The notes beneath the pieces are model-generated. The model saw only the letters and a program-made list of their open reading frames with translations, did no database searches and was not told where the DNA came from. The position numbers and the translations under genes are program-made. From a virus (lineage: Duplodnaviria > Caudoviricetes): a stretch of 44,285 nucleotides of DNA. How positions within the stretch are numbered: position 1 is the first letter of the stretch; each line of letters opens with the position of its first letter. Shown here in pieces: positions 1 through 16,395 of the stretch. The stretch is taken from the IMG/VR virus record IMGVR_UViG_3300034008_000051, positions 1 to 44,285 of that record; one strand, 5' to 3'.

Positions 1-187
1 TCGCTACGAATCCGCTACACTAAGCGGATGCGAGCAGCGTGTGGTGAGTGTGTGGTAACCCTGTGTGGGAACCGTGGGAATCAACGGTTCGTCGCATCTG
101 GTTTTCGCCGCCGTTTACCCTGGTCAAACGCCTGGACGCGCACTGGCGAAGTCTGCGTGGGCTGTTGTATGAAGCCACTCAGCTCGG
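1..187. repeat. Terminal direct repeat, left copy (187 bp)
   Basis: Bases 1-187 match 44099-44285 except A128 vs C44226; consistent with a circular or terminally redundant genome. Confidence 0.95.
2..82. promoter_or_regulatory. Candidate oriT/replication origin: hairpin plus iteron-like repeats upstream of the relaxase
   Basis: ATCCGCT(10-16)/AGCGGAT(23-29) inverted repeat extendable to 2-39; TGTGTGGTAACC(49-60), TGTGTGGGAACC(62-73), GTGGGAATC(74-82); TGTGGATAA DnaA box lies just across the circular junction (44088-44096). Confidence 0.45.
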
Positions 188-208: not shown

Positions 209-940
209 ATGGGGGTCTGCATGATGTTCAGTGACACATCCTCCGTCGACCTCTCACCCCGTGACCTATCCATCGTCCAGCTGGTCGCCCGCTTCAAGCA
301 GGTCGCATCCAGCCACATCCACGAACTACTTTTCACAGACATCAAGAGCCACACGCCAGCAGACCGAGCACTGCGAAGACTGACGGCGAGCGGGCACCTG
401 CAACGTGTCGAGCGTCGGATAGTCGGGGGAAGTCGGGGCGGGTCCGGCCAGTACGTCTACCAGTTGGGTCGGCGTGGCTTCTATGTCTACTTCGAGGGCA
501 GGTATGCACCGTGGCGAACTGTCAACTACCACGCCCTAGCCATAGTGGACTCATACGTTGTCATGCGCCGGCTAGAACGGGCGGGCTACGTAGCTATAGC
601 CGGCGTGTCTACCGAGCCTGATTGCTGGGTGAAAGTTGGCGGGAACGAGCTGAAGCCGGACCTGTACCTGGAACTGGCACGGGCAACGGGCGAGCGGCTG
701 AAGCTGTGGCTGGAGATCGACATGGGTACAGAGGGTCAGCGACAGATAAAAGACAAGCTAGAGCGGTATTGGCGGGCCTACAACGAAGCCGATTGGCCGG
801 TATTCCCGCGCACCATATGGGTAGCCGTGGACGCCGAGCGCGAGAAGGAACTGGCTTGGTTGATATCTCAAGGCCCGCCCGACGCACGCATACTATTTCA
901 GGTGACGACGCTGGCCGGTCTGCCTTCGTTGTTTGTGTGA
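209..940 (+). CDS. Replication-relaxation family protein (Replic_Relax, MOBC-like PD-(D/E)xK relaxase)
   Basis: N-terminal winged-helix-like segment (LSPRDLSIVQLVARFKQV...RALRRLTASGHL), GGSGQYVYQLG, H..AI, and KPD..L...WLEIDMGTE....IKDKLERY nuclease motif; true start may be ATG 221 or 224. Confidence 0.85.
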   Translation: MGVCMMFSDTSSVDLSPRDLSIVQLVARFKQVASSHIHELLFTDIKSHTPADRALRRLTASGHLQRVERRIVGGSRGGSGQYVYQLGRRGFYVYFEGRYAPWRTVNYHALAIVDSYVVMRRLERAGYVAIAGVSTEPDCWVKVGGNELKPDLYLELARATGERLKLWLEIDMGTEGQRQIKDKLERYWRAYNEADWPVFPRTIWVAVDAEREKELAWLISQGPPDARILFQVTTLAGLPSLFV

Positions 941-941
941 C

Positions 942-999
942 TTATCCACAGCTTTTTACCAGAAATAGTATTGACTATTCCTCATGCTAAGCGCATACT
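942..999 (+). promoter_or_regulatory. DnaA box plus sigma70-type promoter
   Basis: TTATCCACA at 942-950, then AATAGTA-TTGACT(971-976)-17 nt-CATACT(994-999). Confidence 0.7.
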
Positions 1000-1075
1000 G
1001 TAAGTATTGCATAAAACGCAACGCACCTTAGAAAACTCATGCGCTCATTGTCAGTAAGTAAAGGGAGACAATGAC

Positions 1076-1267
1076 ATGACAGAAAAAAGCACAGCATCTA
1101 CGCGGTACGGTGACATCATGTACTACTACTCACGAGAAGTTGAACCACGACCTTTTAGTCGGTTCACGTCAGATGATGCAGAGCAACAAGCGAACGATGA
1201 TTGGATTGAACGCGCATTGTCGTGGGGTAGTCATCACTTCGACGAGTATGGTCGCGTGGTTGCCTAG
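1076..1267 (+). CDS. Small hypothetical protein
   Basis: 63 aa, GGGAG ribosome-binding site, directly downstream of the promoter. Confidence 0.6.
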   Translation: MTEKSTASTRYGDIMYYYSREVEPRPFSRFTSDDAEQQANDDWIERALSWGSHHFDEYGRVVA

Positions 1268-1282
1268 CGGTTTACCGCTGGC
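1261..1282 (+). repeat. 22-bp gene-end repeat, copy 1
   Basis: TGCCTAGCGGTTTACCGCTGGC, 20/22 identical to 1502-1523; hairpin-forming. Confidence 0.8.
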
Positions 1283-1325
1283 CATGAGGGCATGAGTGAA
1301 TAGCAACAATTGATGGAGGAAACAT

Positions 1326-1508
1326 ATGAAATACTACTACTCGAATGTTTATCAAACGCTGTACTTTCTCGAAAACCGCACATTGTGTGGCGTTACGCGG
1401 AATAGTAGCGGCTTGCTCGATGCCGATGAGGCTTTCGTAGTAAACCTCGACAATGGCGAGGTCTCTCGCGAGTTTTACATTGAGGTCGCAGCCCGGTTGA
1501 GTGCCTAG
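1326..1508 (+). CDS. Small hypothetical protein
   Basis: 60 aa, strong GGAGG ribosome-binding site. Confidence 0.7.
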   Translation: MKYYYSNVYQTLYFLENRTLCGVTRNSSGLLDADEAFVVNLDNGEVSREFYIEVAARLSA

Positions 1509-1523
1509 TGATTTACCGCTGGC
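1502..1523 (+). repeat. 22-bp gene-end repeat, copy 2
   Basis: TGCCTAGTGATTTACCGCTGGC. Confidence 0.8.
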
Positions 1524-1563
1524 AAGTAGCGTGATAACTCATTAACGTAAGAGGAATAACTCT

Positions 1564-1764
1564 ATGACAACAGATACAGAACCAACGATGCAACTGGAGA
1601 TCTACAAGCGTACGCTGCTAATGCTTGAGCGTGAGAAGGCCGTCGTGGAGTTGGATGAACCGACCGGCGAGTTCAAAACAGAGTATCTGGTGGCGCTCGA
1701 CTATACGCTTGATATGGTGCGGCAAAATATCGCCCGCCTGAGTGCGGGGTCACCTTCACGATGA
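1564..1764 (+). CDS. Small hypothetical protein
   Basis: 66 aa, GAGG ribosome-binding site, ATGA overlap with the next ORF. Confidence 0.65.
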   Translation: MTTDTEPTMQLEIYKRTLLMLEREKAVVELDEPTGEFKTEYLVALDYTLDMVRQNIARLSAGSPSR

Positions 1765-1961
1765 AGCAGCGAAACGCTGTCCGCAACGCTCGCCTCAAGG
1801 CTGCGCAACTCCGCTGGGCTAGGGAAGATCGCGAACGGGGCTTCCCTGTCCGGCACAGGCGAATCTCTTGCATGGAACGAAAGAATCAACAACTTAATGA
1901 AGACCTGCTAGTAGTAGCCGCACTCGCGTTTGTATGCGTGTGGGTGGAACTGGCGGGGTAG
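1761..1961 (+). CDS. Small basic protein with C-terminal hydrophobic segment
   Basis: 66 aa, coupled to the previous ORF by an ATGA overlap. Confidence 0.5.
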   Translation: MKQRNAVRNARLKAAQLRWAREDRERGFPVRHRRISCMERKNQQLNEDLLVVAALAFVCVWVELAG

Positions 1962-1969
1962 GGAGTTAT

Positions 1970-2314
1970 ATGAGGGAATTGAAGTTTAGAGCGTGGGACG
2001 GGTCCAAGTTATATGAAGTGAAACATTTGGACTGTTTGCCAACGGGGGAGGCTTACGCCTCGGCGGCTGGTTACCTAGACAGTACGGCGGTCATGGAGTA
2101 CACCGGTATGAAGGACAAGAACGGCGTGGACATCTACGAGGGGGATATCATCGGGGTGGACGGAAAGGCTTGGCCGCGTGCGGTTGATTTTGAGGATGGC
2201 CGCTTCTGTCTTGGAGGTGGGGCACTGGTCGAGCGGATGGGTGACTGGTCAAGGCGTGGCGACCGTTACGAAGTCGTGGGCAACATCTATGAGAACCCGG
2301 GGCTACTGGCATGA
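1970..2314 (+). CDS. YopX family phage protein
   Basis: MRELKFRAWD...MEYTGMKDKNGVDIYEGDII...EVVGNIYENP signature; start moved to ATG 1970 after GGGAG. Confidence 0.92.
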   Translation: MRELKFRAWDGSKLYEVKHLDCLPTGEAYASAAGYLDSTAVMEYTGMKDKNGVDIYEGDIIGVDGKAWPRAVDFEDGRFCLGGGALVERMGDWSRRGDRYEVVGNIYENPGLLA

Positions 2315-2333
2315 GCGGGCCGCTTTTTGGTAC

Positions 2334-2880
2334 TCTAAGCAGCCTCTCTAATTCCCGGTAACGGGGGAGGCACCTCACGTTCGACTGGCTTAGAAGTGGG
2401 GACCGTTCAGAGTCTTCGTACTTGCTGAGCTAGTGGCGATTTGATAGATACAGCTACTGAACATCTCAGGCTACGGAGAGCAAGCGAAGCGCGGTAGTGA
2501 CGTTGTAGACAGGTGGTGAGGGAGTTTTCGGAAATGTGAGACACCGAGTAATTACTTCGGCTCAACTAATCCCTAGCTAGCGTAAACTTCCCCTCCAGCT
2601 GTCTACAATGGTATCTGCTTGTTAATGATCAGCGGGGGACTATCCGCACTTCCGCACCAGGCGCTTTACGGTAGCACTAAACGTCGTTGTACTGTGGCCT
2701 CATCAAGTAGGCAAATGGTCAGGGAAGAAGTACGTTACGCTTCGACTAGGGTGCGACCCTATCCAGATACTCTACTGGTATTGCCCAACCAACTGCCTAC
2801 TTGTCAAGGTGTGTGCCGCCCGTACTGAGTAATGTTTTGAGTCGTCTCAGTAGGTGATTCGGTGGCTGTACTGGCCTGCC
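2334..2880. ncRNA. Candidate large structured non-coding element (RNA or ssDNA), about 550 nt
   Basis: No credible ORF; stems 2334-2340/2388-2394, 2354-2365 (GTAA loop), 2405-2410/2457-2462, 2503-2512/2599-2608, 2704-2713/2794-2803, 2747-2761, 2823-2829/2846-2852. Confidence 0.5.
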
Positions 2881-2895
2881 TAGACTGATAGATGC

Positions 2896-2924
2896 TTGAC
2901 AAATAGAGAGCCAGTTCTCATAAT
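2896..2924 (+). promoter_or_regulatory. Sigma70-type promoter
   Basis: TTGACA(2896-2901)-17 nt-CATAAT(2919-2924). Confidence 0.7.
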
Positions 2925-2939
2925 CATGTATGTGATGGC

Positions 2940-2963
2940 AGCCCCTCGAAAGAGGGGTTTTCT
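2940..2963 (+). terminator. Intrinsic terminator-like hairpin
   Basis: GCCCCTC-GAAA-GAGGGGT followed by a T run. Confidence 0.7.
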
Positions 2964-3050
2964 ATTTGCGTGTGATGGCAAATATCCCTTGCATTTAAGC
3001 ACGATACGCGGCCTATTGCAACTTGCTACGGCTTATGGACGGGAAAAGTA

Positions 3051-3079
3051 TTGACTATTCATGGCGCATATGCTAGTAT
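3051..3079 (+). promoter_or_regulatory. Sigma70-type promoter
   Basis: AAGTA-TTGACT-17 nt-TAGTAT; shares AGTATTGACTATTC with the promoter at 971. Confidence 0.65.
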
Positions 3080-3110
3080 TAAAAGGTAAGTTAAACAAGG
3101 CAACATAAAT

Positions 3111-3530
3111 ATGAAGACAAAGGAACAAGCACTAGATACCACCCAGCCCGTCGAGCTCACGACGTTCCTGGAAGGCCAGGCCGCTCCCTTCGTCATCCGT
3201 GGCGACTACGAAGCCGTGGCGCCCATGGCTGAAGCCCTGCGCCAGGCTGACGAGCAGTTACCTACACAGGTGGCAACTCGTACCCGCAAGGTGGCTCAGG
3301 CAGCCGTTGAAGCAGTCTCCGCGCCGATACAGACAGGCCTCGGCCGGGTCGCGGTTGATGTCAAGGCGATCGTGTACGACAAGCTGCACCGCACGAACTT
3401 CTACGACCTGCTCCGCGACAAGCGGAACACTGAGCGTGATCTTCGGTTCGCCGGCAGTCTCGGCCTGTTCCAGGAAGAGGTCTGCGCCAAGCACCGCAAG
3501 GCCCTTCAGTCGGTACGGAGGGTCCGGTAA
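3111..3530 (+). CDS. Hypothetical protein
   Basis: 139 aa ORF directly downstream of the promoter. Confidence 0.7.
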   Translation: MKTKEQALDTTQPVELTTFLEGQAAPFVIRGDYEAVAPMAEALRQADEQLPTQVATRTRKVAQAAVEAVSAPIQTGLGRVAVDVKAIVYDKLHRTNFYDLLRDKRNTERDLRFAGSLGLFQEEVCAKHRKALQSVRRVR

Positions 3531-3610
3531 TGGCCTTCGAGCAGATAGCGACCGGCATCGTCTTAGCGCTCATGATGGTGCTGGCCGTGATAAATAAGAT
3601 TGTCGCTTAG
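3530..3610 (+). CDS. 26-aa hydrophobic peptide (MAFEQIATGIVLALMMVLAVINKIVA)
   Basis: TAATG coupling to the upstream stop; single predicted TM helix; not in the ORF track. Confidence 0.45.
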   Translation: MAFEQIATGIVLALMMVLAVINKIVA

Positions 3611-3637
3611 AGTCAGTAGGCTTATAATCAGTCGCAT

Positions 3638-3781
3638 ATGGAATTGTCTGACTACCTAGCAAAATCAACCGAAGCAAGCGGAGTGCCGTTGAAGGTAGCG
3701 GATAAGCCAGTGCTACGCGACATCGCCGCTCTGCTCATCGAGGGCAACCCCGAGTTCATGCCTCGAACGAAAGCCGCCTGA
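3638..3781 (+). CDS. 47-aa protein convergent on the integrase; candidate directionality factor or accessory protein
   Basis: MELSDYLAKSTEASGVPLKVADKPVLRDIAALLIEG...; own promoter TTGTCG(3600-3605)-17-TATAAT(3623-3628); no Shine-Dalgarno; stop 3 nt from the integrase stop. Confidence 0.55.
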   Translation: MELSDYLAKSTEASGVPLKVADKPVLRDIAALLIEGNPEFMPRTKAA

Positions 3782-3784
3782 CCG

Positions 3785-5239
3785 TCAGACCTTCCACTGG
3801 ATGTCTATCCACTGCGGATCGAACCTGTGTCGCTGACCGTCCCTCGTGACGTAGAACGGCTTGGTGCTGCCGGGGTTGACCACGATCTTGTCGATCAGCA
3901 TGGCAAGCAGCGTCCGGCGCCACGTATCACTGCCGCTGTTGTCCCACGCTGCCCGGACTGAATCACCTACAGGAATGAGACCGGCGGCCGTCCTGTGGCG
4001 GTTCACGACCTCCAGCTCGCGCTCCAGCCGTTCAAGCTCCGCCTCGGCCGCTCCCTTGGCTCTGGAGAACTGTTCCCGGTCAAGCAGCCCCGTTGCGTAG
4101 TCCTCGACGAGCGCGTCCAGTCGGGTCTTGGCGGCCTGGCGGCTGTGGAGCAGCAGGGAGATCGCGACATCTGTGTCGTTATCTCGCTTCAGCAGGTTGC
4201 CGAGCTCCGGTGTATCGAGCCGGTACAGGACGCACTCTTTTATCCAGTCGTCGAGCGCCTCAGCGTTGCGCCGTATCCGGTTGCAGCCGAACTTTTTGCC
4301 CTGAGCGTCCGTGCGCTTGGCACAGAAGTAGACGCGGCGCGGTGGGAAGCTGGGGCCAAGGTCGTACATGCGGGTGCCGCTGAGCGGGTTACCGCACCTG
4401 CCGCAGTAGGCGAGGCCGGTCAGTAGGTACTTGCGGGCGATGGGGCCCTTGAAGTTGGACTGCTCACGCCTGAGCCTGATGGTTAGCTGCAGCTGTTCCC
4501 ACGTAGCAGGGTCGAAGACCGGGTCCCAGACAGCGGGGTAATCAACGCCGTCGTACTCTCTTAAACCGGCGTTGCGCTTGCGGTTGAGCAGGTTGCGCAC
4601 GGTGATGTTGTGCCATGGCCTCCCCATGCTGGTCGCGTGACCCTGCTCGTTGGCCCAAATGGCGATCTCTTTGAATGAGTGGCCAGCCAAGTAGCGCCGG
4701 GCCATCTCTCGCATGATGGCGGCCTCAGTCTCGTTGATCGTCACCATGTCCGCCTCGTACCCAAACGGGCGGCGTGAGCCGTGTGGTTTGCCGGCGCGGG
4801 CCTTCTGAGCGTTGGCCCGGATCTGACGGTCACTCTTCTGCTCGATCTCGTAGCGTGCCCAGCCGGCGAGCTGGTCGGCCATCATGCGGCCCATCGCGGT
4901 CGACATGTCCAGGTCAGAGCCTCGAGCTAGGGCGATGATCGTCCGGTGCTTCTGGCAGGACTCGATCAGCCGGACGGTGTCCTGGCGGTTGCGCGTCAAT
5001 CTGTCCAAGCTCCAGGCGATGATGACGTCAATCTCGCCGCGGCCAAGGGCGTCCATCATCTTCTCGAACTCGGGGCGGTGCACCTTGCCCGAAGCCGATG
5101 TGTCATTGTCGATATAAGTGGTAGTCAATTGCCAGCCGCGGACGTCCGCTAGCTTTGCACAATCTTCTTCTTGGCGACTGACTCCCAGTGATTCACCTGT
5201 CTTATCCAGTGATATCCGTAGGTATAGAACTGCCCGCAT
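3785..5239 (-). CDS. Large serine recombinase (integrase)
   Basis: YLRIS catalytic Ser, RPEFEKM, AWSLDRLTRN, recombinase domain (PFGY), zinc ribbon (LLTGLAYCGRCG...YFC...C), coiled coil. Confidence 0.95.
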   Translation of the reverse strand: MRAVLYLRISLDKTGESLGVSRQEEDCAKLADVRGWQLTTTYIDNDTSASGKVHRPEFEKMMDALGRGEIDVIIAWSLDRLTRNRQDTVRLIESCQKHRTIIALARGSDLDMSTAMGRMMADQLAGWARYEIEQKSDRQIRANAQKARAGKPHGSRRPFGYEADMVTINETEAAIMREMARRYLAGHSFKEIAIWANEQGHATSMGRPWHNITVRNLLNRKRNAGLREYDGVDYPAVWDPVFDPATWEQLQLTIRLRREQSNFKGPIARKYLLTGLAYCGRCGNPLSGTRMYDLGPSFPPRRVYFCAKRTDAQGKKFGCNRIRRNAEALDDWIKECVLYRLDTPELGNLLKRDNDTDVAISLLLHSRQAAKTRLDALVEDYATGLLDREQFSRAKGAAEAELERLERELEVVNRHRTAAGLIPVGDSVRAAWDNSGSDTWRRTLLAMLIDKIVVNPGSTKPFYVTRDGQRHRFDPQWIDIQWKV

Positions 5240-5249
5240 GTAATGGTTC

Positions 5250-5289
5250 CTGCTTACTGGAGTTCATTATGAATGTTTCCAGTAGGTAG
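5250..5289. other. Candidate attP (imperfect inverted repeat just upstream of the integrase)
   Basis: CTGCTTACTGGA-GTTCAT-T-ATGAA-TGTT-TCCAGTAGGTAG; position is typical for serine-integrase attP sites. Confidence 0.35.
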
Positions 5290-5476
5290 TCAACACATCT
5301 TCCTCACGTTTGTCAACCCAACTAGCGGTTGACCAAGGGCTTTCTTCGGCCGTGACCGCCTTGCACCGTTGTAACGACACGCTGACGCTAGGCCAAACTA
5401 CACCCAAGTAATTCCACGATCTAGAACCAACACGGCGTGGCGCACCGCAAAAAACGTGGGCGTGGCATCAACGTTA

Positions 5477-5512
5477 TTTACAGGACCACCGAGCCCGCGG
5501 TGGTCCTGTAAA
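5477..5512. repeat. Perfect 15-bp inverted repeat
   Basis: TTTACAGGACCACCG-agcccg-CGGTGGTCCTGTAAA between the integrase and the transfer operon. Confidence 0.85.
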
Positions 5513-5598
5513 CCCCAAGGGAGTCACATCGTGACCAGCAACGCGGTGCTCGCCACCGTGAACCCCACCCCCCACCCCACCCGCCCTGAGGAGGCGTC

Positions 5599-5916
5599 AT
5601 GAGCTCACTCGTAGTGCAAGGCCGCCAGGACTACGACTGGCGGCTGCCCAGCCTTCGAAGCACGAGATCGACACGCAAGCAGGCTGAACGTCTGCAAGCA
5701 CAGCTAGCGATCGAGGAGGAGCGTCGCATCATCCAGCATGTACGGGTCCGAACAGTGACAGAGGTCGGAGTGGCTGCCATGCAAGGAACAAGCACTGTCA
5801 CGCAGGTCGCAGAGGCCGAAGCAGCTGCTGTACCCGGCGAACGTCACAGGGTCGACGCCATCGCTGACGCGACCGCTGCCGCCCTGTTGAAGATCGTCAT
5901 GGAGACAGGGCAGTGA
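5599..5916 (+). CDS. Hypothetical protein, first gene of the putative transfer operon
   Basis: GAGGAGG ribosome-binding site; Ala-rich helical 105 aa. Confidence 0.8.
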   Translation: MSSLVVQGRQDYDWRLPSLRSTRSTRKQAERLQAQLAIEEERRIIQHVRVRTVTEVGVAAMQGTSTVTQVAEAEAAAVPGERHRVDAIADATAAALLKIVMETGQ

Positions 5917-6215
5917 TCCTGGCCTCCGTCTTGCTGCTTCATCACATCGAGGGAGTCTGCAAGCCGCTGTCATGGGCGAAGCAGGCAGCGGTGGACTTCC
6001 TGGCCCGCACGGCAGCTCGGGATCGCACCGGCGCCGTCGAGCGGGCTGAGCAGGTCAAGGCAGAGCGTCTCGCTCGAGCCCAGCGGGCAGGGCAGAAGCA
6101 GGAACCTAAGGTCACCGAGAAGCCGATGCCGGCCATCACGCAAGGTGATCCCAGTAGTCACGAGTTCAGCGCACAGTTCAGAGAGAGCGAGGAATACTTA
6201 TGGAAACAGTCGTGA
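5913..6215 (+). CDS. Hypothetical protein
   Basis: GTGA overlap with the previous gene; 100 aa. Confidence 0.6.
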   Translation: MILASVLLLHHIEGVCKPLSWAKQAAVDFLARTAARDRTGAVERAEQVKAERLARAQRAGQKQEPKVTEKPMPAITQGDPSSHEFSAQFRESEEYLWKQS

Positions 6216-6427
6216 TTGTCACAATGCTTCTATCCCTGGCAATCGGCGTGATTCTTGGTGGAGCATTCTTCATGCACCGGTATGAGAAACAGCTGAATCA
6301 CCTCGGCCTGCTTCACACGATAGTCGGGATTGAGCAGCAGGGGATCGAGGCCCAGAAGCTCATTATGTCGGTGACCGGCAATGCTATTGCTGATATCCGT
6401 CGCCCGCGACTGGTCGACAGGAATTAG
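6200..6427 (+). CDS. Small membrane protein
   Basis: N-terminal TM helix; GAGG ribosome-binding site. Confidence 0.7.
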   Translation: METVVIVTMLLSLAIGVILGGAFFMHRYEKQLNHLGLLHTIVGIEQQGIEAQKLIMSVTGNAIADIRRPRLVDRN

Positions 6428-6430
6428 GAG

Positions 6431-6592
6431 ATGTTCCGCAGGTTCTGGGAACTGATCATCGTCCTGATAGTGCTTGGTCTGCTCCTCCAGATCTTCGTCG
6501 AGACGGTCAGGCCGATGATGCCTTACATCATTCTGGCCGGCATCGCGTTGATAGCTGGTCGAGTGCTATATAGGCGTAACCAGAACTGGTAG
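6431..6592 (+). CDS. 53-aa two-TM membrane protein (MFRRFWELIIVLIVLGLLLQ...YRRNQNW)
   Basis: Read manually; AGGAG immediately upstream; two hydrophobic helices; directly precedes the coupling ATPase. Confidence 0.7.
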   Translation: MFRRFWELIIVLIVLGLLLQIFVETVRPMMPYIILAGIALIAGRVLYRRNQNW

Positions 6593-6648
6593 TAGCCAAC
6601 GAAGAGCACAAGGACGTCCTAATCTATAGCTGTTAAAGTATTGCATAT

Positions 6649-8916
6649 ATGGACGTCCTTGTGCTCTCATTGCTGGCGATCTTCGCAACCATAGTAACGG
6701 GAGTTCTCATGGTAAAGACGCTCGACCAAAAGCGCCGCGATCATGAACGTAAGACATACCGGCTGACTTTCCCGTCCGAACTATCCGAAGACACTGTCAC
6801 TGCCTGGATCAGGGCCATCTCCGGCACGCTCCGCTTCAGCTCGTCGCGTCTCGTTGGAGTGCCGACTATCGGCTTCGAGCTCTGGGCGACCAACGACGGG
6901 CTTGTCCACCGACTGAAAATCCCCTGGCAGCACGCCGACTACGTCATCTCACAGTTGCGCAGTCTGGTGCCCGGCATCCGGGTAACACCCGAAGACGAGT
7001 GGCCACACCGGAAGTGGGTCAAGGCCGTTGAGGTCGGTCTGACGCACTCCGGTCGCCCGCTGCGCATCTACTCGCCAGCCGACATGGCGTCGTCTCTTCT
7101 GGCCAGCGTGCAAGCCCTACAGGCCGATGAGACCGTCATGGTGCAGTGGGTGGTGACACCGTCCGTGCCGGTCCATCCGCCGATCTACAAGCAGGCCCAG
7201 ACGGACACGCTGGGGCTACGTGTGTTGAGCACCGGCACGATGGCCAACCGCGACGAGGTTCGAGCGAGGCGCGAGAAGCTGGCCGAGCCCAACGTGCTGG
7301 CTGTCCTGCGGGTGGCGTCGGTGGCGAAGACTCCAGTACGGGCCGAGCATCTGATTCACCGCGTCAGGGCCTCACTGTCAAGTACGCGTGGCCCATCTTC
7401 GCGGTTCGTGAAGCGCATGGTGCCGGCCAAGAAGTTGCAGCAACGCATAGACCTGGCCAGCGGTTCGGTCAACTTCCCGATTCAACTATCAGCGCCGGAG
7501 CTGACGGCGCTACTGGCTTGGCCGATAGGGAATCCGTTCGTCACCGGCCTACCGCCGCGCATGTCACGTCAGCTACCGGCCACTGACCTGGTGCCGCGGG
7601 AGGGCCGGGTGCTTGGCCGCTCGAACTTCCCGGGAAACGAGCGGCGTATAGCTATCGACTACACCGCGGCGCGCAAGCACATGCACATTATCGGTCCGAC
7701 CGGGGCAGGGAAGACGGCGCTGCTGGCCAACATGATGAAGCAGGACATGGAAGCCGGGCACGGCGTCATCCTGATCGACGGCAAGGGTGGATCGTCGAGC
7801 CTGTTCTCTGCTGCCCTGGATTACGTGCCCAAGAGGCGTGTGGACGACGTCATCGTGCTCGACGTGCAAGACACGTCAAGGCCTGTGGGTTTCAACATCC
7901 TCAAGCAGGGCGACCCACGGGTAGTCATCGACGAGCTGACTGACCTGTTTGAGTCGATGTATGACAGCAAGAGCGTCTGGACCCGCGAGATCCTGTACCA
8001 CGGGCTCAGGACGATCATCAGCGATCCAAGGCTGACGTTCATCGACCTCGGGCCACTGCTCGTTCCGATGTCTGAAGACGATGGCAAGTGGCGCGACAAC
8101 CTGATCAGAGGCCTGGACGACGTCGAGCTGCGGCAGTTCTGGCAGCGCTTCGAGAACCAGCCGCGCTCCGCGCAGGACCGCATCACACAGCCTGTAATGG
8201 ATAGAATCTGGCAGCTCAACGCCCGCCCGGAGATACGGAACATCATCGGGCAGAGTTCCTCGGGCTTCCTGATGTCGGACGTGGTGGCGCAGGGCAAGAT
8301 TCTGTTGGTCAACCTTGGCGGCCTGTCGATAGACACGGCCAGCCTGACCGGCACGCTGCTCATGAACGCGCTGTGGCACACCGTGAAGACAACGCCGGCC
8401 GACCCGCCTACCTACCTGTACCTCGACGAGTTCCAAAAGTTCATCCGGTTGCCAATCGACCCGGAGAGCATGCTGGCTGAGGCTCGAGGCTTTGGGCTGG
8501 GCATGACCCTGGCCCACCAGCACCTCAACCAGCTGCCAACGGAGCTGCGGCAGGCGGTGCTCGCCAATGCCCGCTCGAAGATCATCTTCCAAACCACGGC
8601 CGACGATGCCCGAATCATGTCGAGAGAGTTCGGCAGCACCGTCACAGACGACGACTTCATGCACCTCGGCAAATTTGAAGCGATCACCCGTATAGCTACG
8701 CCGGATGGCGTGAGCTCCCCATTGACCATGACCACCATGGAGCCGGCCAAGCCAGCCGGTACAGCGAAGGAAGTGCGCTATGTTTCTAGGCAAAAGCACG
8801 GCCGGCCGGCCCACGAAGTGGAGGCGGAGATTATCAAGCGCCGCACGGTCGAGGAAAAGAAGACGAACCGACCAAGGCCAAAGATCAGCGGCTGGGACAA
8901 GCCTGACGCGTCCTGA
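6649..8916 (+). CDS. Type IV coupling protein-like ATPase (VirD4/TraG/TrwB-related conjugative DNA-transfer family)
   Basis: N-terminal TM; Walker A HMHIIGPTGAGKT; VILIDGKG; Walker B YLYLDEFQKF; EARGFGLGMTLAHQHLNQL; preceded by extended -10 TGTTAAAGT (6631-6639). Confidence 0.88.
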   Translation: MDVLVLSLLAIFATIVTGVLMVKTLDQKRRDHERKTYRLTFPSELSEDTVTAWIRAISGTLRFSSSRLVGVPTIGFELWATNDGLVHRLKIPWQHADYVISQLRSLVPGIRVTPEDEWPHRKWVKAVEVGLTHSGRPLRIYSPADMASSLLASVQALQADETVMVQWVVTPSVPVHPPIYKQAQTDTLGLRVLSTGTMANRDEVRARREKLAEPNVLAVLRVASVAKTPVRAEHLIHRVRASLSSTRGPSSRFVKRMVPAKKLQQRIDLASGSVNFPIQLSAPELTALLAWPIGNPFVTGLPPRMSRQLPATDLVPREGRVLGRSNFPGNERRIAIDYTAARKHMHIIGPTGAGKTALLANMMKQDMEAGHGVILIDGKGGSSSLFSAALDYVPKRRVDDVIVLDVQDTSRPVGFNILKQGDPRVVIDELTDLFESMYDSKSVWTREILYHGLRTIISDPRLTFIDLGPLLVPMSEDDGKWRDNLIRGLDDVELRQFWQRFENQPRSAQDRITQPVMDRIWQLNARPEIRNIIGQSSSGFLMSDVVAQGKILLVNLGGLSIDTASLTGTLLMNALWHTVKTTPADPPTYLYLDEFQKFIRLPIDPESMLAEARGFGLGMTLAHQHLNQLPTELRQAVLANARSKIIFQTTADDARIMSREFGSTVTDDDFMHLGKFEAITRIATPDGVSSPLTMTTMEPAKPAGTAKEVRYVSRQKHGRPAHEVEAEIIKRRTVEEKKTNRPRPKISGWDKPDAS

Positions 8917-9256: not shown

Positions 9257-10978
9257 TCAAAAAAACTGAAAGAAGTCTGTGGTGTTCGCTGGCGCACCGC
9301 CGCTCTTGCTCACTGTAATCCGTGGCGTCACCGCGTAGCTGTTTAAGACTGCGCCGTTGCGGAGTACGCGGAAATCGAGGGTATCAGTATCAGCGACGGC
9401 TGACGATACGACTGTGAGGCTGTAGAGATGTTCGGTGTAGTTGGAGGCGGTCAGCTGATGGTCGGTGACAAGTCCAGTTTCAGAGACTTCACCAGCTACA
9501 AATGAGCCGGTACCAGCGCCGAGGCGGTTGGTGGTAGCTCCACCGTCAGTGAGGGAGGGGGAGGCGTAGGGAACAACCTCTACGCCTGTGACTGTCGAAA
9601 TAGTGGCTACACTAAAACATACATCATTTGTATCTGCCGTCCACGTCCCCGCGTTTCGGATAGCTCGGTTTCCTCCATGCCCTGCTCCGAAGGTAACAGT
9701 AATATTATTCGTGTTAGTTAGTCCACTCCGGTCTAATACTATGAAGTAAGCGGATGCGGCCGTCGTTTTGTACATCTGTACCGAGGAAAAGATAAATTCT
9801 ACCAATGTATTAGTACTTGACTGTGTAGATGCGTCAAGAGAATTTGATGTCGCTAGCAAGGTGACAGGCACACCGCCGCTACCATAAGTACCACTATGTG
9901 AATAAAGTTTGGCAGATATACTCCCTGTCGCTGTTCCATTTCGGGCAATTCCTATCGAAGCACTAGCTATATACTTCCCATCCCCCAAGAATGACTGGCC
10001 AACCATATCTTGAGTACTACCGGAACCGCTCTGGTTTCCAACTCTGTTTGCCAAGGCAAATGTATCAGCAATTACAGGAGATTCGACAGTTCCGACATTC
10101 GCATACGCCCCGCCGTCAAGCGAATACTGCAACTGGTAATCATCCGTACTTGCCCCGGCGACCGCCCCGCTCTCCTGCAAGCGGACACGGAGGGCTAGGT
10201 TGCTGTCAGTGTCTACTGTGCGGGTGATGTTGGTGTTCTGGGCTGCTATGACTGTGCTGCCGGATTCCGTGCCGTCTTCGTAGAGGCGGAAGGCGGACTG
10301 GGCGACGACAGGTACAGCGGGCTTCAGCGCAAATACCTGATAAGCATTAATTGCCGTGACGATGGTTGCTACGGTCGTATCCGTAGAACCGGCCGTGGCT
10401 TTTATACCTGTATAGACACCGATACCACCACCCAGTCCTAATGCTGTTCCTGCGTCATAGCGCTCAGTCAGCGAGGTCAAGTTGGCATTGGTCATGCTCG
10501 TCACCCAAGCAGCGGCACTGTCGCTATCCTTGGTGATTCCAAGTACGACTAAAGACTCGGCTACCGTAGTCGTAAGGGCTGGCAGGGTTGCTGCGGTACT
10601 GGTAGCGGCCTTGACACCTCCGACGGGCGTATCGAACGGGTCGCCGGAGGTAATGACACCACGGAACGTCACAATCACGGCATGGGTGTGGTCGGCTAGG
10701 GAAGCGATAATAGGCGAAGCCATAGCGCCTGATGTTGCCCTGCACCAGAACATGTGTAGCTTGGTTCCCGCCGTGCCTGTGCCTGTGGACTGAACCGTGC
10801 CGAAGGCGACAAAACCGTTAGCCGTGCTTAGCGTAGGCGTAGCTGAGCCACCCGCGGTTTCCACGAACAAGATTGCCACATCGTTAGTTACATGCGCTGG
10901 CCATGCAACGGTTAAAGCCGCTACTGCCGCGGAGTGTCCAGCAGCGTTACTGACGGCCTGGAAAGTCGGAACCGCCAT
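9257..10978 (-). CDS. Large beta-rich virion-associated protein (fibre/receptor-binding-like)
   Basis: 573 aa rich in Thr/Ala/Gly/Ser, apparently multidomain, at the end of the late operon. Confidence 0.6.
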   Translation of the reverse strand: MAVPTFQAVSNAAGHSAAVAALTVAWPAHVTNDVAILFVETAGGSATPTLSTANGFVAFGTVQSTGTGTAGTKLHMFWCRATSGAMASPIIASLADHTHAVIVTFRGVITSGDPFDTPVGGVKAATSTAATLPALTTTVAESLVVLGITKDSDSAAAWVTSMTNANLTSLTERYDAGTALGLGGGIGVYTGIKATAGSTDTTVATIVTAINAYQVFALKPAVPVVAQSAFRLYEDGTESGSTVIAAQNTNITRTVDTDSNLALRVRLQESGAVAGASTDDYQLQYSLDGGAYANVGTVESPVIADTFALANRVGNQSGSGSTQDMVGQSFLGDGKYIASASIGIARNGTATGSISAKLYSHSGTYGSGGVPVTLLATSNSLDASTQSSTNTLVEFIFSSVQMYKTTAASAYFIVLDRSGLTNTNNITVTFGAGHGGNRAIRNAGTWTADTNDVCFSVATISTVTGVEVVPYASPSLTDGGATTNRLGAGTGSFVAGEVSETGLVTDHQLTASNYTEHLYSLTVVSSAVADTDTLDFRVLRNGAVLNSYAVTPRITVSKSGGAPANTTDFFQFF

Positions 10979-10981
10979 GGA

Positions 10982-11335
10982 TTAGGTCAATGGTCCTGCG
11001 GCCATACATCGCCACTTGTTGGTAGCTGCATTGCGCACAAAGCCGACGTCGAGCCGCTGCGTACCGATCGTTGTAGTCGGCAGAGCCACCGCACCGGCCT
11101 CGAATGAGGCACCCCACGTGATCGCCCGGGCAGCGGTGCCAGTGATGGCGATCCACAGCCTTTGGCCGTTGATAGGTGACCCAGACAAGTTGGTAGTGAA
11201 AGACGTGATATCTCCCGCTTGAGCGGTCAGGATATACATGTCGACGTCATCGGTGTTGATAGTTGGCGTCGCGCTCGATGCCACCGTGCCGACACGATGG
11301 ATTTGGTTGGAACTGGATAGCCGTCGAATGGCCAT
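10982..11335 (-). CDS. Tail fibre-associated protein
   Basis: GTAARAITWGASF...LPTTT...LDVGFVRNAATNKWRC resembles phage fibre/spike C-terminal modules. Confidence 0.55.
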   Translation of the reverse strand: MAIRRLSSSNQIHRVGTVASSATPTINTDDVDMYILTAQAGDITSFTTNLSGSPINGQRLWIAITGTAARAITWGASFEAGAVALPTTTIGTQRLDVGFVRNAATNKWRCMAAGPLT

Positions 11336-11338
11336 GGC

Positions 11339-12640
11339 CTACAGTCCCGCGATGACTACCTTGTAGGCACCGGAGGAAGGAGCCGTGGCAAACTTGAAGG
11401 TCGCTGTGCTGGTCGAGGTGGCTTCCCACTCAACTTCTACGCCAGTGTTGGTCGTCGCGTCCCGGACGGCCGGCACGATGTTTTGCGTGCCAAGGTTGTG
11501 CGTAACGACGATGTTAGATGTGGACCCATCACCGATCGTGGCGGCGTACCCGCGCATGAAGTCCGCTAGGCCGTCTGGCGTTACGACGACGGAGCTGGAT
11601 GAGCGAGCCTTCGTCTCATTCGTAGTGGCCAGCTCAACGACACCCGTAGCTGAGGTGGAAGCTTCTTGCTTGATGTTGCCGAAGGCGGTGGCGGCATTGT
11701 TGACGTCCGAAAGGTTAGAAGCGATCTTGAGTTGGGCATCATTCGTCACGTTCCCGAGTCCAACATCGCCCTTGGCAAGCGTGACTGCTCCTGTCTGGCC
11801 GGCCACGCTGAGCACCTGGTCGGTGTAGTCGAGCTTCAGCCAGTTGGCGGCATATGTACTGGTGCTGGCGTTGTCGGTGATCGCCAGTATGCGGTCATTG
11901 ATACTGAAAGGGATGGAGTTGACCGTACCTGCCACGCTCACGATGTAACTGGCTCCGGCCTGCGCAGTGCCGCCTCCGGGGAACGTCCCGGCGCTAGCGT
12001 CCCAAGTACCCATGAGGACAACTGAAGCATCAAGGGCATTGACGCGACTCTCTATGGCGTCGAGATCGACAGCCTGCGTGACTGTGACATGGTCAAGCTT
12101 TGTCTCATCGGCGGTCGTGAAACTGGCCGTGGTGTTGTTCAGCACTGTGCTGTTGCTGTGGGTGTGACGAGCTGCGGTGTTTGCGGCGACGTCGGTGTTG
12201 GCCGACACGGTGCTTTGGAAGTCCGAGATGGTGCTGGCCGTCTGTGAGCCCGTGTGGTTCGCCCTGGACTTCAAGTTGGCGTCGGTGTCGTTGGCAGTTG
12301 CCCCGGTGGCGATTCCGGATAGCTTGGTGAATTGGGCACTAGTGAAGACACCGGCGTTGGTGCCGTCGGCTGAGGCAATTGTGACGTCGGCACCAGTATT
12401 ACTGTTTATGGCGACGCTTGTGGCTGTAAGCGTACTAGACAGGTCAGTCGCGCCAGCGCCGCCCTGAACGCCGAGGTCAAGCCACGAGCCGTTCTTGCGG
12501 ATGTAGGCGGTCTGGTCCGTCGAGTTGTAGTACATCTGCCCTTCGGCGGGGCTTGATGGTGCGCTCGAGAGTACCTGAAGCACTGCGTTCTGCAGTTCTC
12601 TCTTGCCTAAGTCTATTGATGATCCGTAGGGTATTGCCAT
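11339..12640 (-). CDS. Tail fibre-like protein
   Basis: Fibre motifs (PSSPAEGQMYYNSTD, RANHTGSQ, VAGQTGAVTLAKGDVGLGNV, ASTSATGVVELAT, VTHNLGT). Confidence 0.7.
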   Translation of the reverse strand: MAIPYGSSIDLGKRELQNAVLQVLSSAPSSPAEGQMYYNSTDQTAYIRKNGSWLDLGVQGGAGATDLSSTLTATSVAINSNTGADVTIASADGTNAGVFTSAQFTKLSGIATGATANDTDANLKSRANHTGSQTASTISDFQSTVSANTDVAANTAARHTHSNSTVLNNTTASFTTADETKLDHVTVTQAVDLDAIESRVNALDASVVLMGTWDASAGTFPGGGTAQAGASYIVSVAGTVNSIPFSINDRILAITDNASTSTYAANWLKLDYTDQVLSVAGQTGAVTLAKGDVGLGNVTNDAQLKIASNLSDVNNAATAFGNIKQEASTSATGVVELATTNETKARSSSSVVVTPDGLADFMRGYAATIGDGSTSNIVVTHNLGTQNIVPAVRDATTNTGVEVEWEATSTSTATFKFATAPSSGAYKVVIAGL

Positions 12641-12681
12641 GCTTATTGCTGCTTTCTTACTTTAGTTTATCACCGCTTCGT

Positions 12682-13065
12682 CTAATTGCATACGACCCGC
12701 CCACCGAATGCTGCATCGAATTGCAGGAAAACTTGATTCAAATTGCCCGGTTGATAGTTCACCTCGACAATGACCTCATCCCCTGCGCTATTGATCACAG
12801 TCACGGCGGGATACTTGCCTAAGCTGTGTGTCACGGTTAGCGCTGTCGTGGGAGAGAACTCTTGCGTGTAATGAGAATCGTCGCTTCCATCAACTCCGGG
12901 TGGCCCCGGTTGACCAGGCGCACCGGGAAGGCCTTGTATACCGCCATCTCCCGTGAAGATCACTTCCTGGTCGGCGTCCTCGACTACGTCTATTTGTGCC
13001 TCCGGCTCGACGCCCAACACCTCGGTGTAGGAATCGTCAGTGACGATGATCTCGTCCATCGCCAT
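12682..13065 (-). CDS. Collagen-like minor structural protein
   Basis: Gly-X-Y run GIQGLPGAPGQPGPPG; VTHSLGKYPAVTV motif; TAATG-coupled start at 13065. Confidence 0.7.
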   Translation of the reverse strand: MAMDEIIVTDDSYTEVLGVEPEAQIDVVEDADQEVIFTGDGGIQGLPGAPGQPGPPGVDGSDDSHYTQEFSPTTALTVTHSLGKYPAVTVINSAGDEVIVEVNYQPGNLNQVFLQFDAAFGGRVVCN

Positions 13066-13439
13066 TAGGTTGTCCTCTGTGTGACCTCTGGGGTGATCTG
13101 ACACCGCGGCAGCTCACCGTTGCTCCGCTTGTAGGTGCGAATCTTGCCGCCTGAGTCTTTGAGCTGGATGTCGTAGACGTACTCACCAGGCACAGCTTTC
13201 GGTCCGCCGGTGACGGCTGCAGTCAGGGAAATGACGGTCTTGCCGTTCGCCGGGTCAGCTGCGGGATGGTCGTGCACGCTTTCCTGGGCCTTGATGACGG
13301 CGTTGCTATCGTCGGTATCCACCTTGTCGACCAGGTCCTCGGGCTTGACCGTGAAGAACACCGTGCAGCCAGTCAAGTTGGGCGCACCCGGAAGGGTGAC
13401 GCCAAAAGACTTGTCATCGCCGCGGGTGATCCTGAGCAT
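13065..13439 (-). CDS. BppU N-terminal-like baseplate/fibre adaptor
   Basis: ITRGD...LTGCTVFFTVK...G.YVYDIQL pattern. Confidence 0.6.
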   Translation of the reverse strand: MLRITRGDDKSFGVTLPGAPNLTGCTVFFTVKPEDLVDKVDTDDSNAVIKAQESVHDHPAADPANGKTVISLTAAVTGGPKAVPGEYVYDIQLKDSGGKIRTYKRSNGELPRCQITPEVTQRTT

Positions 13440-13441
13440 GG

Positions 13442-13633
13442 CTACGACCGAGGCGCTTCGTTCTTAGGCGCGGCGTAGACGATGACCGCGGTAATGATTG
13501 CACTAATCAAGACTTCGATGGCATCGTTGAGGTCATCCGCGATGATGATGTTGTACTTCGCCATGAAGAGCACGATTGCCCCCGCGACTGCTCCAGCTAA
13601 TGCTTTGCTGATTGGTTTGAATGCTTCTAACAT
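13442..13633 (-). CDS. Holin (two TM helices)
   Basis: 63 aa, two TMs, VY.APKN ending; immediately after the endolysin. Confidence 0.75.
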   Translation of the reverse strand: MLEAFKPISKALAGAVAGAIVLFMAKYNIIIADDLNDAIEVLISAIITAVIVYAAPKNEAPRS

Positions 13634-13642
13634 AGAATCTCC

Positions 13643-14305
13643 CTACTGTAAGTTACGTTGTATATAATCTACGACGGTCACCTTGTCGATGACCTTCGCC
13701 GGTGTCACGGCCGGTGCGGCTTGCTTGGCGATGAGGCCGTGCAGCTTGCTCACATCAGCCCAGAAGTTCACCATGGCGTCCAGGTTCTCCTGATTCGCGA
13801 CCTTGCCGGTGAACCGGTAGTCGTAGCCTTTGCCGGGGTAACCCCCGGTGGCCAGTACGGATAGTACGTTCTCTTGATCTTTCGTTATGGGCATTTCGCC
13901 TCCTTCGCTTATGTTCCATTTGCTGGCATCATCGTACTTCGCTTTGCTTTGGACAGTCGAGATGTGCAAGTGCTTGTCGTGAGGGTTCTCGCCGTAGTAC
14001 GGGGTCCAGACCCCGCCCTCCCAGATTCGCCGATTGAAGATGATGTACCAGATGCGCGAATCGCCTGACCGCAGTAAAGCGGTTGCCAGCTTGTTCATGT
14101 CTGCACCGTTTGCCGGGTCGTGCGTGATGTCCAGCGCCGTTACAACGCCTTCGGCGTTAGGGTTGTGCTCGCTCTTGACGGCCTGGTGCGCGGCATCCCC
14201 CAGCATGCCGTCCGACGCCTTGTTCCGCGCGGGATATAGAGCATTGACCTGAGCCAACAATGTTGCAAGACTCTGTGCCGGTCGAGGGTAGTTAGGCCAC
14301 GCCAT
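13643..14305 (-). CDS. Endolysin, Zn-peptidase (M15/LAS-like), actinophage-style
   Basis: SDGMLGDAAH...SEHNP....ALD...YIIFNRRIW...NPHDKHLHIS (H, D and HxH metal ligands). Confidence 0.8.
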   Translation of the reverse strand: MAWPNYPRPAQSLATLLAQVNALYPARNKASDGMLGDAAHQAVKSEHNPNAEGVVTALDITHDPANGADMNKLATALLRSGDSRIWYIIFNRRIWEGGVWTPYYGENPHDKHLHISTVQSKAKYDDASKWNISEGGEMPITKDQENVLSVLATGGYPGKGYDYRFTGKVANQENLDAMVNFWADVSKLHGLIAKQAAPAVTPAKVIDKVTVVDYIQRNLQ

Positions 14306-14762
14306 GAAGTGCCTTCTTCCTTAGGTGGTACCGGCGATTGCGGTCACGTGCGCATACCCGACAGCGATTCTTATCTACGAGCTTCGGTCGGTCCTCCGGA
14401 TACTTGTGACCGTTCGGACATACCTTGAGATCCGCTTTGCCATCACGGCCCTTGTTGAACATGTCCGCCATATTCTCGGCTTGAGTCCCTCGGCGGAGGT
14501 GAGATGGCTCGCTGCAGGAGGGATTATCACACTTGTGCAGGATGACGTCTGCTGACGTAAGTGGCCCGACCTTCATTCGATAGGCCAGGCGATGTACCCT
14601 CAATAGGCGCCCGCGATGCTGAGCACGAATCTGCCCATACCCGGACTGGTTACGATATCCGTTGTACTCGAGGCATCCGGCAGATGTTCGAGTCCAGCCT
14701 ATAGCTCGAACCTTATTCCACACTGCTTCGAAGCTTATATCTTGAAATGCTGCACGTGCCAT
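14292..14762 (-). CDS. HNH homing endonuclease-like protein
   Basis: GCLEY.G...GYG...RVHRLAY...ILHKCDNPSCSEPSHL..GTQAENMAD plus C-terminal CPNGH...CRVC; start taken at MARAAF. Confidence 0.88.
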   Translation of the reverse strand: MARAAFQDISFEAVWNKVRAIGWTRTSAGCLEYNGYRNQSGYGQIRAQHRGRLLRVHRLAYRMKVGPLTSADVILHKCDNPSCSEPSHLRRGTQAENMADMFNKGRDGKADLKVCPNGHKYPEDRPKLVDKNRCRVCARDRNRRYHLRKKALHGVA

Positions 14763-14920
14763 ATGCTTCCATAATAAAACAACCTTGAGACAATTCCTAT
14801 TTTTCATCGCAAGCAGGGTGACAGTAAGTTATCTGACTGTCACAGGACACACTTCGGCGCACCATGTAGACATGATCAAAAAACTATTCAACCCAAATAC
14901 GCTAGATCCGGAGCTACGGC

Positions 14921-15274
14921 TTAACTTCCTGCGACTACAACGTCGGCGGCTCGCACTTCGATAGGCGTGAACTCTGACGGCTGTCTGCCGCCCGGCAGAT
15001 CACTTTGGTCAAAGCAGTACTTCTGCCCACCAGGGTTCCTCGACTCGAGTGGCAGGATGAGCAGGCAAGTGATGTACCTGCGGTTTTCTTCAGTGCGGGT
15101 CCTACCGTCACGCTGAGCGTTGGCAACAAGTGCCTGTTGGTTGTGAGCCACTACGACTAGGGACACTAGGACGGCGGCTAGAACAAAGACCAGCAGTAGG
15201 AATGTGGCCACGCGTTGACGCTTGTCGTTCTTGACCAACCGCTCATAAGCCTTGTATTCGAGGTCACCTTCCAT
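14921..15274 (-). CDS. Membrane protein (lysis-accessory candidate)
   Basis: Single TM helix, two Cys; lies in the lysis region. Confidence 0.65.
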   Translation of the reverse strand: MEGDLEYKAYERLVKNDKRQRVATFLLLVFVLAAVLVSLVVVAHNQQALVANAQRDGRTRTEENRRYITCLLILPLESRNPGGQKYCFDQSDLPGGRQPSEFTPIEVRAADVVVAGS

Positions 15275-15608
15275 GCGAGATAATCCTAGCCAACGCGCTC
15301 ATGACTTCTTTGTGATTGTTACTCGTGAGGGTTGTGAGCTGGGCAATAGGAACACCGAAGTTCTGGTCTTTGTACTCCTGGAGAGCTCGCTCTCGTTCCT
15401 GCGCTCGGGCGGTACTGGCAGCAAGGTCAGCCTTGAGGTCCGTCCGCTCGAGTCGGAGATCGTTGTTTTGACCTCGGAGCTCATCATTGCCAGCCTGTAG
15501 GAGCGCGATCTGCGCCTCAAATCTCTGCTTATTAAATACTGTTGCCGCAGCAGATAGAACAGCGAGACCAATGCCAAAGACCAAGCCGAAAGTGTTAAGA
15601 GCATCCAT
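15264..15608 (-). CDS. Membrane-anchored coiled-coil protein (holin-like/lysis accessory)
   Basis: N-terminal TM followed by a coiled coil. Confidence 0.65.
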   Translation of the reverse strand: MDALNTFGLVFGIGLAVLSAAATVFNKQRFEAQIALLQAGNDELRGQNNDLRLERTDLKADLAASTARAQERERALQEYKDQNFGVPIAQLTTLTSNNHKEVMSALARIISHGR

Positions 15609-15631
15609 CCGACACTTTCTGTTGGCGCTGC

Positions 15632-16198: not shown

Positions 16199-16386
16199 TA
16201 GGCAACCTCAACCTTTTCGAGTTCGATTGACTCGATGTTATTGTTGGTAGGATTGCCGTCAGCATCTTGCAGCTCACCCTCATAGAGGCCGGCAAGCTTG
16301 TTTCGCGCCGAGTCTTCGTTCTTCGCCTCTATAGAGCCGTCTGCGAAGCCTTGCTTGGTAGTTACATGGAAGTTGAATAATTGCAT
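16198..16386 (-). CDS. Small hypothetical protein
   Basis: 62 aa, TAATG-coupled to the next gene. Confidence 0.6.
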   Translation of the reverse strand: MQLFNFHVTTKQGFADGSIEAKNEDSARNKLAGLYEGELQDADGNPTNNNIESIELEKVEVA

Positions 16387-16395
16387 AACGTTTTC

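Follow-up and report, generated by a model that had tools for sequence, protein, structure and literature searches.

Introduction

The spread of phages by DNA translocation is an idea published in 2012 for Bacillus phages, when 0305phi8-36 and SPO1 were described to carry an operon for a MobC protein, a coupling ATPase and a membrane anchor, and propagation by translocation was proposed (PMC3357382). An integrated element class of streptococci, IME_Class_8, is defined by a serine integrase, a MobC relaxase (PF13814) and VirD4 (PMC5357655). TraX, the prototype of the MOBC relaxases, is described as a restriction-nuclease-like protein with a winged helix and a binding site of direct repeats (PMC12857230). 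Also, a temperate Bacillus phage with an FtsK-replication-relaxation operon was reported (PMC11526630). According to one account, conjugative prophages are not known (PMC12282955). In this study, we analyzed the viral record IMGVR_UViG_3300034008_000051 (Caudoviricetes) over its whole length of 44,285 nucleotides, in the following called the window, in which a MOBC-type relaxase and a VirD4/TrwB-like ATPase occur on the same molecule as virion genes. An earlier annotation of this DNA, here called the original prediction, had suggested an element able to spread both as a virion and by cell contact. Our analysis points to the backbone of an integrative mobilizable element within a temperate phage, and this backbone may provide a second, virion-free route of spread, a reading to which we assign a probability of about 0.47.

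Materials and methods

The window was scanned with Pfam and PHROG profiles (71 open reading frames, ORFs) and with NCBIfam (18 ORFs). Nine proteins were compared with the PADLOC defense library; the window beyond these nine is annotated by Pfam and PHROG only. A Logan contig of 44,081 nt was used as a second assembly, probably of the same sample (a biocrust metagenome, the probable source run). Related elements, among viral records as well as bacterial loci, were found by alignment-based scans; scanning viral contigs with single proteins had given nothing. Fifteen related elements were tabulated, with G007 and G011, which had the same matches, counted once and the fragment G008 excluded. In ten relatives, selected ORFs of at least 100 aa from our own ORF caller were scanned (280 ORF scans). 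Literature searches, with subscription journals and supplements outside their scope, returned neither a paper dealing with this family of actinobacterial phages or with DUF8128 nor a follow-up to the proposal of 2012.

Relaxase and ATPase belong to the backbone of a temperate phage family

The window represents one circular genome of 44.1 kb with a terminal repeat of 187 nt (one mismatch), on which terminase, portal, capsid, tail, lysis and integrase genes form the gene set of a temperate tailed phage. The complete virion gene set claimed before was recovered as terminase, portal, protease, capsid, neck, tail tube, tape measure and lysin genes. Despite the integrase, no repressor-like helix-turn-helix gene was detected by the Pfam and PHROG scans of the window. 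Both the relaxase and ATPase trees and the presence of Lsr2 and WhiB in relatives make an actinobacterium the likely host.

The relaxase gene matches PF13814 with 64.9 bits (cut-off 25.3), in line with its original assignment. From the alignment, its start is probably at 221 or 224, and with numbering from base 224 the residues H103, D146, E164, D166 and K178 are invariant in 46 of 46 homologues. The structure was predicted with confidence (predicted local distance difference test, pLDDT, 93) and shows a winged helix followed by an alpha/beta domain, in which D146, E164, D166 and K178 lie. Residues 2-121 of the model resemble MarR-type winged helices (Z up to 9.2), and the full-length fold resembles Bacillus phage proteins with a template modeling (TM) score of 0.73-0.79. 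Regarding the nuclease fold, a Foldseek search of solved structures returned weak rows alone, namely FokI and Can2 (E > 0.001). Overall, the protein fits the description of TraX. The relaxase had no match in any cultured phage, and no close plasmid relative was found.

The ATPase exceeds the Pfam cut-offs for TrwB_AAD_bind, TraG-D_C and T4SS-DNA_transf, as expected for the VirD4/TraG-like protein that had been predicted. Its Walker A and B motifs are intact and invariant in the alignment, and the DUF8128-like domain was assigned by comparison with the Atlas (TM 0.82-0.87). The N-terminal anchor is present in the window and, by hydropathy, in 60 of 119 homologues. A profile search of solved structures placed DotL and TrwB nearest (E ~1e-6), ahead of HerA (0.02-1.7) and FtsK (0.8), whereas all NCBIfam models of type IV coupling proteins score the ATPase far below their cut-offs. 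No close match was found in cultured phages. In two homologues, P0035 and P0080, an intein-like insert of ~300 aa interrupts precisely the Walker A motif; by its length, P0036 is of the same kind.

Four small, partly membrane genes had been noted ahead of the ATPase. Two of them, s3 and s4, are indeed of membrane type; s2 is non-conserved (Table 1). For s1, no Pfam or PDB match and no known relative was found, and s4 has no family in the Atlas. A role of s4 as pilin is unsupported; s4 could not be aligned to the pilin of phage D6E.

Relaxase and ATPase are kept together in relatives, for which the original prediction had suggested a search. Among the 15 related elements, the relaxase was found in 13, the ATPase in 14, both in 12, ArdC in 12 and the integrase in 14; the three elements in which the pair is incomplete are two partial records and one 24-kb remnant. 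Identities to the window were 32-61% for the relaxase, 37-66% for the ATPase, 45-67% for ArdC and 28-49% for the integrase, while the virion genes mostly reached 24-34% or gave no match. Relaxase, ATPase and ArdC are hence better conserved than the virion genes. Head types in the family number three or more, with a different head module in each of the window, G002 and G004. The five phages whose capsid is nearest (45-47%), three of them at least 90% complete, carry neither relaxase nor ATPase (0/5); the two genes therefore travel with the backbone. Two phages with the closest head-tail module (L368:13687-15714 in G026 and L370:5393-7423 in G027) encode a fusion of a PD-(D/E)XK nuclease with FtsK beside RecT, an analogous nuclease-plus-motor arrangement. 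For the Paeniglutamicibacter prophages G020 and G021, the one clearly unsaturated pair, the ratio of nonsynonymous to synonymous substitution rates (dN/dS) was 0.024 for the relaxase, 0.017 for the ATPase, 0.056 for ArdC and 0.061 for the integrase, indicating strong purifying selection on relaxase and ATPase.

The phages of this family are temperate, 39-61 kb in size, and have the relaxase split from the ATPase. Five Micrococcales prophages sit between the halves of comM, which are 42-61 kb apart, and such comM-splitting prophages occur in cultured soil isolates of Arthrobacter, Paeniglutamicibacter and Cryobacterium; for G022, a tail-tube gene is the sole virion evidence shown. Indirect support for the joint occurrence of relaxase and ATPase came from the protein database. 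Contigs of at least 36 kb carry 21 relaxase homologues, and for 14 of these an ATPase homologue exists on a contig of exactly equal size; 30 of 36 long contigs with ATPase homologues measure 36-56 kb. In FastTree trees (midpoint-rooted, no clade test), all 13 phage relaxases formed one clade (Shimodaira-Hasegawa support 97) among actinobacterial virion-free elements, and the phage ATPases were intermixed with five virion-free rows. Elements of Kribbella, Streptomyces, Lentzea, Kibdelosporangium and Amycolatopsis carry relaxase and ATPase mostly side by side, together with defense cargo, and no virion genes were seen in their scanned ORFs. No closer integrated relative was present in 401 Streptomycetaceae genomes.

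In G012 (L365-L366), a 24-kb remnant in comM, integrase, ATPase and ArdC were kept and relaxase and virion genes were lost together; considered at first sight as a natural replacement of the relaxase, it is instead a deletion remnant. Several actinomycetes (L036, L039, L041, L042; G009, G013, G018) have two divergent ATPase-relaxase modules facing each other at a distance of 3-47 kb. Cargo of the restriction-modification and Pycsar-like kind is present in related prophages (L177, L181, L206, L215, L219), where it lies either between the relaxase and the terminase or inside the set of virion genes.

A recent insertion of a mobilizable element into an ordinary phage, or a chimeric assembly, would also place these genes together. 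The Logan contig opens at 5555-5571, and the module genes have closer counterparts in chromosomal elements than in any phage in culture. However, the opening is a C-rich stretch and the sole break of this contig, which matches 1-5554 and 5572-14000 without differences, bridges the suspected joins at 940, 3600 and 9000, and ties the modules together through the virion genes. Furthermore, 12 or more relatives show the same split layout, five prophages are bounded by comM halves, and the GC content at third codon positions is even across the window (0.70-0.84). Insertion or chimera is thus largely refuted and very improbable, and the original view that this is not one recent insertion stands. The relaxase-ATPase module is part of the family backbone and not an insert; it is real, ancient and under selection.

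Indications for and against transfer without virions

Upstream of the relaxase lies a candidate transfer origin, at which nicking is only predicted. It contains four repeats GT[AG][GT]G at 39, 50, 63 and 74 with a spacing of 11-13 nt, and the terminal repeat duplicates the whole region at 44107-44225. This direct-repeat array is the only one in the window; G001 and G004 likewise have a single array each, likewise upstream of the relaxase. With a motif chosen after the sequences had been viewed, arrays of at least three repeats were found upstream of the relaxase at 3 of 12 phage loci (expected 0.01) and 7 of 23 virion-free loci (expected 0.03), and are thus common to both kinds of elements. 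The repeats resemble the direct-repeat binding site described for TraX (PMC12857230). The motif CWGGTCAR is enriched, yet mostly inside coding DNA, and is therefore uninformative alone.

Transfer by cell contact is the leading reading because the conserved unit of serine integrase, MobC and VirD4 matches a mobilizable element. Since a mating-type relaxase and a motor are kept while virion genes are swapped, cell-to-cell spread beside virus particles appears likely. After excision, the relaxase would bind the direct repeats upstream of its own gene and nick nearby; priming of replication may be a further use of this nick. The ATPase, anchored in the membrane through its own helix or through s3 and s4, would pass the DNA to a channel into the touching cell. 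There, ArdC and the annealing protein could help the incoming DNA to establish, and the integrase would insert it (into comM in Micrococcales relatives). Among possible channels, one borrowed from a co-resident conjugative element would be the likeliest, if in itself a doubtful one; a minimal pore made of s1, s3 and s4 appears rather unlikely. Similarly low is our estimate for the widest version of this model, namely conjugative prophages with a VirB4-less minimal machine of the coupling ATPase and three tiny proteins, with the relaxase as sole replication initiator and with different virion modules acquired in evolution.

Several observations weigh against a virion-free route, the first of them concerning the channel. 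As stated before, no VirB4 or other channel genes are recognizable among the 71 ORFs (Pfam, PHROG) and 18 ORFs (NCBIfam) of the window, and they are also absent from the relatives scanned. Lacking VirB4 and mating-pair genes in this scope, the family does not qualify as self-conjugative integrative elements; integrase, relaxase and coupling protein without VirB4 instead give the constitution of IME_Class_8. A VirB4-like match above the cut-off was found in none of eight Micrococcales hosts examined and a VirB4-like gene in only 12 of 301 Micrococcaceae genomes, in both of which plasmids may be missing. Because VirB4-like genes are this rare in the host family, the channel borrowed from a helper, as originally proposed, is awkward. 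That the 16 of 301 Micrococcaceae genomes with the ATPase do not overlap with the 12 is uninformative, with ~0.6 co-occurrences expected.

Secondly, the best profile score of the ATPase outside PHROG is that of mad8 in PADLOC (79 bits, E 9.7e-23, residues 321-678), compared with 46 bits for TrwB_AAD_bind; matches to HerA are weak. Nuclease and ATPase could accordingly form a defense or competition system of the lysogen, either with a HerA/MADS-like motor or by interference with rival elements. Virion-free relatives carry SMODS, SIR2, restriction and TIR genes, and the ATPase operon is transcribed separately from the late genes, beside the integrase, as such a system might be. The nearest solved structures nevertheless favor DotL and TrwB, so that the question of coupling protein or HerA/FtsK raised by the original prediction receives a divided answer, with the structures on one side and the defense library on the other. 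PADLOC matched only the ATPase among the nine proteins, leaving relaxase and small genes without a model and the remaining genes of a MADS or HerA system unseen near the ATPase. Relaxase and ATPase are moreover transcribed separately in the phages, and the repeat array precedes the relaxase. We regard a defense function as improbable.

ArdC is described to shield incoming conjugative DNA (PMC7213743), and its gene was confirmed by PF08401 and, by the overlap given in Table 1, as coupled into the early operon. In 8 of 11 relatives it is found on the arm that points away from the relaxase, but in the other 3 it is on the wrong side, and MOBC elements are reported to be without leading-region enrichment (PMC11541004). 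None of 13 other ArdC-bearing phages (only two of them complete) has the ATPase. Since ArdC-bearing phages without ATPase exist, ArdC is weak evidence for conjugation. ArdA was additionally seen in G002. Individual copies of the module also appear damaged: the relaxase of G022 is interrupted, and the ATPase match of G005 contains one stop.

The remaining objections concern replication. The module may have been repurposed, with the relaxase as nicking initiator at a DnaA-assisted origin and the ATPase as membrane-anchored motor, without any cell-to-cell transfer. Neither a replication initiator nor a helicase, primase or polymerase was recognized in the 71 ORFs of the window (Pfam, PHROG) or in the 280 ORF scans of ten relatives, except for one weak processivity-factor/RusA match. 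As these scans gave no other initiator, the main role of the relaxase may be to replicate the phage. In all phage members, it has moved away from the ATPase to an early divergent promoter, and it occupies the position where lambdoid phages keep their replication initiator. A relaxed DnaA-like box within 260 nt upstream of the relaxase is specific to the phages, being present at 11 of their 12 loci and at 0 of 23 virion-free ones. The window contains 4 matches to the DnaA box where 0.46 would be expected; nonamers of this kind at 942, 37290 and 44088 each stand shortly upstream of a TTGAC promoter-like element. An ERF, Rad52 or SSB-like gene (single-strand annealing or binding) is divergent from the relaxase within ~1.5 kb in 10 of 10 annotated relatives. 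PHROG names the relaxase family "replication initiation by nicking", helper channels are rare, and the three longer ATPase homologues, two of them inspected, would also suit this view.

On the other side, an initiator was equally unrecognizable in 3 of 4 controls, all of them phages that do not carry the module, which makes its absence weak evidence. Virion-free integrated elements retain the same ATPase, membrane genes and repeats, and s3 and s4 are not explained by replication alone. Deletion of the operon of the Bacillus phages is reported to give no laboratory phenotype (PMC3357382), which speaks against a transfer function; but Bacillus phages with replication genes of their own retain this operon although lytic growth does not require it, which argues against replication as well. 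Repurposing for replication alone, the main rival reading, seems to us somewhat unlikely, and the transfer and replication readings are compatible.

We thus retain a second, virion-free route as the preferred reading. The cultured lysogens make the translocation hypothesis testable, and the family supplies intact-looking prophages, a defined integration site and a candidate origin. If transfer occurs, it would mean spread that bypasses receptors and lysis, possibly by a new minimal transfer machine; a replication phenotype without transfer would mean that a MOBC nuclease initiates replication in a tailed phage.

Other features of the window

All features are listed in Table 1. The serine integrase had been predicted as such, and is the phage's own, as 14 of 15 relatives carry one and comM is split beside it in relatives. 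Host junctions in relatives lie ~50-60 nt upstream of the integrase start; an exact core of the attachment site (att) was not found in the window. The YopX gene, originally placed between relaxase and coupling protein, is located there. A region of ~800 nt (2315-3110) is without convincing gene and contains a long inverted repeat (2503-2608); it gave no Rfam match, as did the Rfam search in general. A protein with LysM and lytic transglycosylase domains is encoded in the early arm (33253-33903) and was not found in relatives.

Table 1. Features of the window. Genes s1, s3 and s4 were screened in 94 loci, which include distant ones where none is expected. oriT, origin of transfer; attP, phage attachment site.
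Feature	Position	Strand	Remarks
Candidate oriT/ori	9..127	+	hairpin 9-29, direct-repeat array, then CTGGTCAA at 120; predicted function
MOBC-type (Replic_Relax) relaxase	209..940	+	PF13814; winged helix and nuclease-like domain
YopX-family phage gene	1934..2314	+	PF09643
Large serine integrase	3785..5239	-	Resolvase, Recombinase and Zn-ribbon domains
Predicted attP region and integrase promoter	5240..5598	.	15-bp perfect hairpin at 5477-5512; host junctions in relatives
s1, conserved helical protein	5599..5916	+	~100 aa; homologues in 34/94 loci
s2, non-conserved ORF	5913..6215	+	no homologue in relatives (tblastn)
s3, single-helix membrane protein	6200..6427	+	basic tail; similar genes in 16/94 loci
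s4, two-helix membrane hairpin	6431..6592	+	53 aa; 34/94 loci; nearly always directly before ATPase
VirD4/TrwB-like ATPase	6649..8916	+	N-terminal DUF8128-like domain and one N-terminal helix
Virion and lysis genes	9257..32282	-	Mu-like portal and capsid, long-tail genes, lysin, holin-like gene
ArdC	39039..39824	-	PF08401 (ArdcN); overlaps upstream early gene by 11 nt
Rad52-like single-strand annealing protein	42837..43436	-	PF04098; divergent from relaxase
Leftward (early) promoter-like element	44054..44098	-	DnaA-box-like nonamer 44088-44096; just upstream of relaxase across circular join

Comparison with known systems

The plasmid-phage pZL12 of Streptomyces reportedly combines conjugative transfer with virion production; it is said to be a plasmid prophage with a TraB-type double-strand system rather than with relaxase and VirD4. 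Close to the window are 0305phi8-36 (orf200-207) and SPO1 (gp27.3-27.9), which are described to share a MobC-related relaxase, a VirD4-like ATPase, small membrane genes and the lack of VirB4 (PMC3357382). The window ATPase matches 0305phi8-36 orf201 and SPO1 gp27.4 at 20-23%. According to the same description, these large Bacillus phages differ in being lytic, in keeping the operon genes adjacent and in having both an MreB/ParM-like gene and replication genes of their own (PMC3357382), whereas the window family is temperate, 39-61 kb, likely actinobacterial and has conserved ArdC, a relaxase apart from the ATPase and no other initiator found.

The temperate Bacillus and Geobacillus phages Gamma, GBSV1, D6E and RBClin15 are comparable in having nuclease and/or motor beside the integrase, as far as described (PMC3357382, PMC11526630). 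D6E shares a VirD4-like gene, which in this phage is preceded by a pilin-like ORF; unlike the window, it has replication genes and no annotated relaxase in the stretch compared. This unannotated ORF (L001:6451-6888) stands directly before the VirD4-like gene, and its PF18895 score is just below the cut-off. RBClin15 differs by an FtsK-type motor. IME_Class_8 shares the three signature proteins (PMC5357655), and the MOBC plasmids CloDF13 and pAD1 (TraX) are described with direct repeats, which the window has at its candidate origin, and with a winged-helix relaxase that carries an acidic nuclease motif (PMC12857230). Unlike the window, these three are without virion genes and compact in layout, and the descriptions consulted mention neither s1, s3 and s4 nor DUF8128. 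New in comparison with all of these is an actinobacterial phage family whose layout is split, whose virion modules are swappable and whose lysogens exist in culture.

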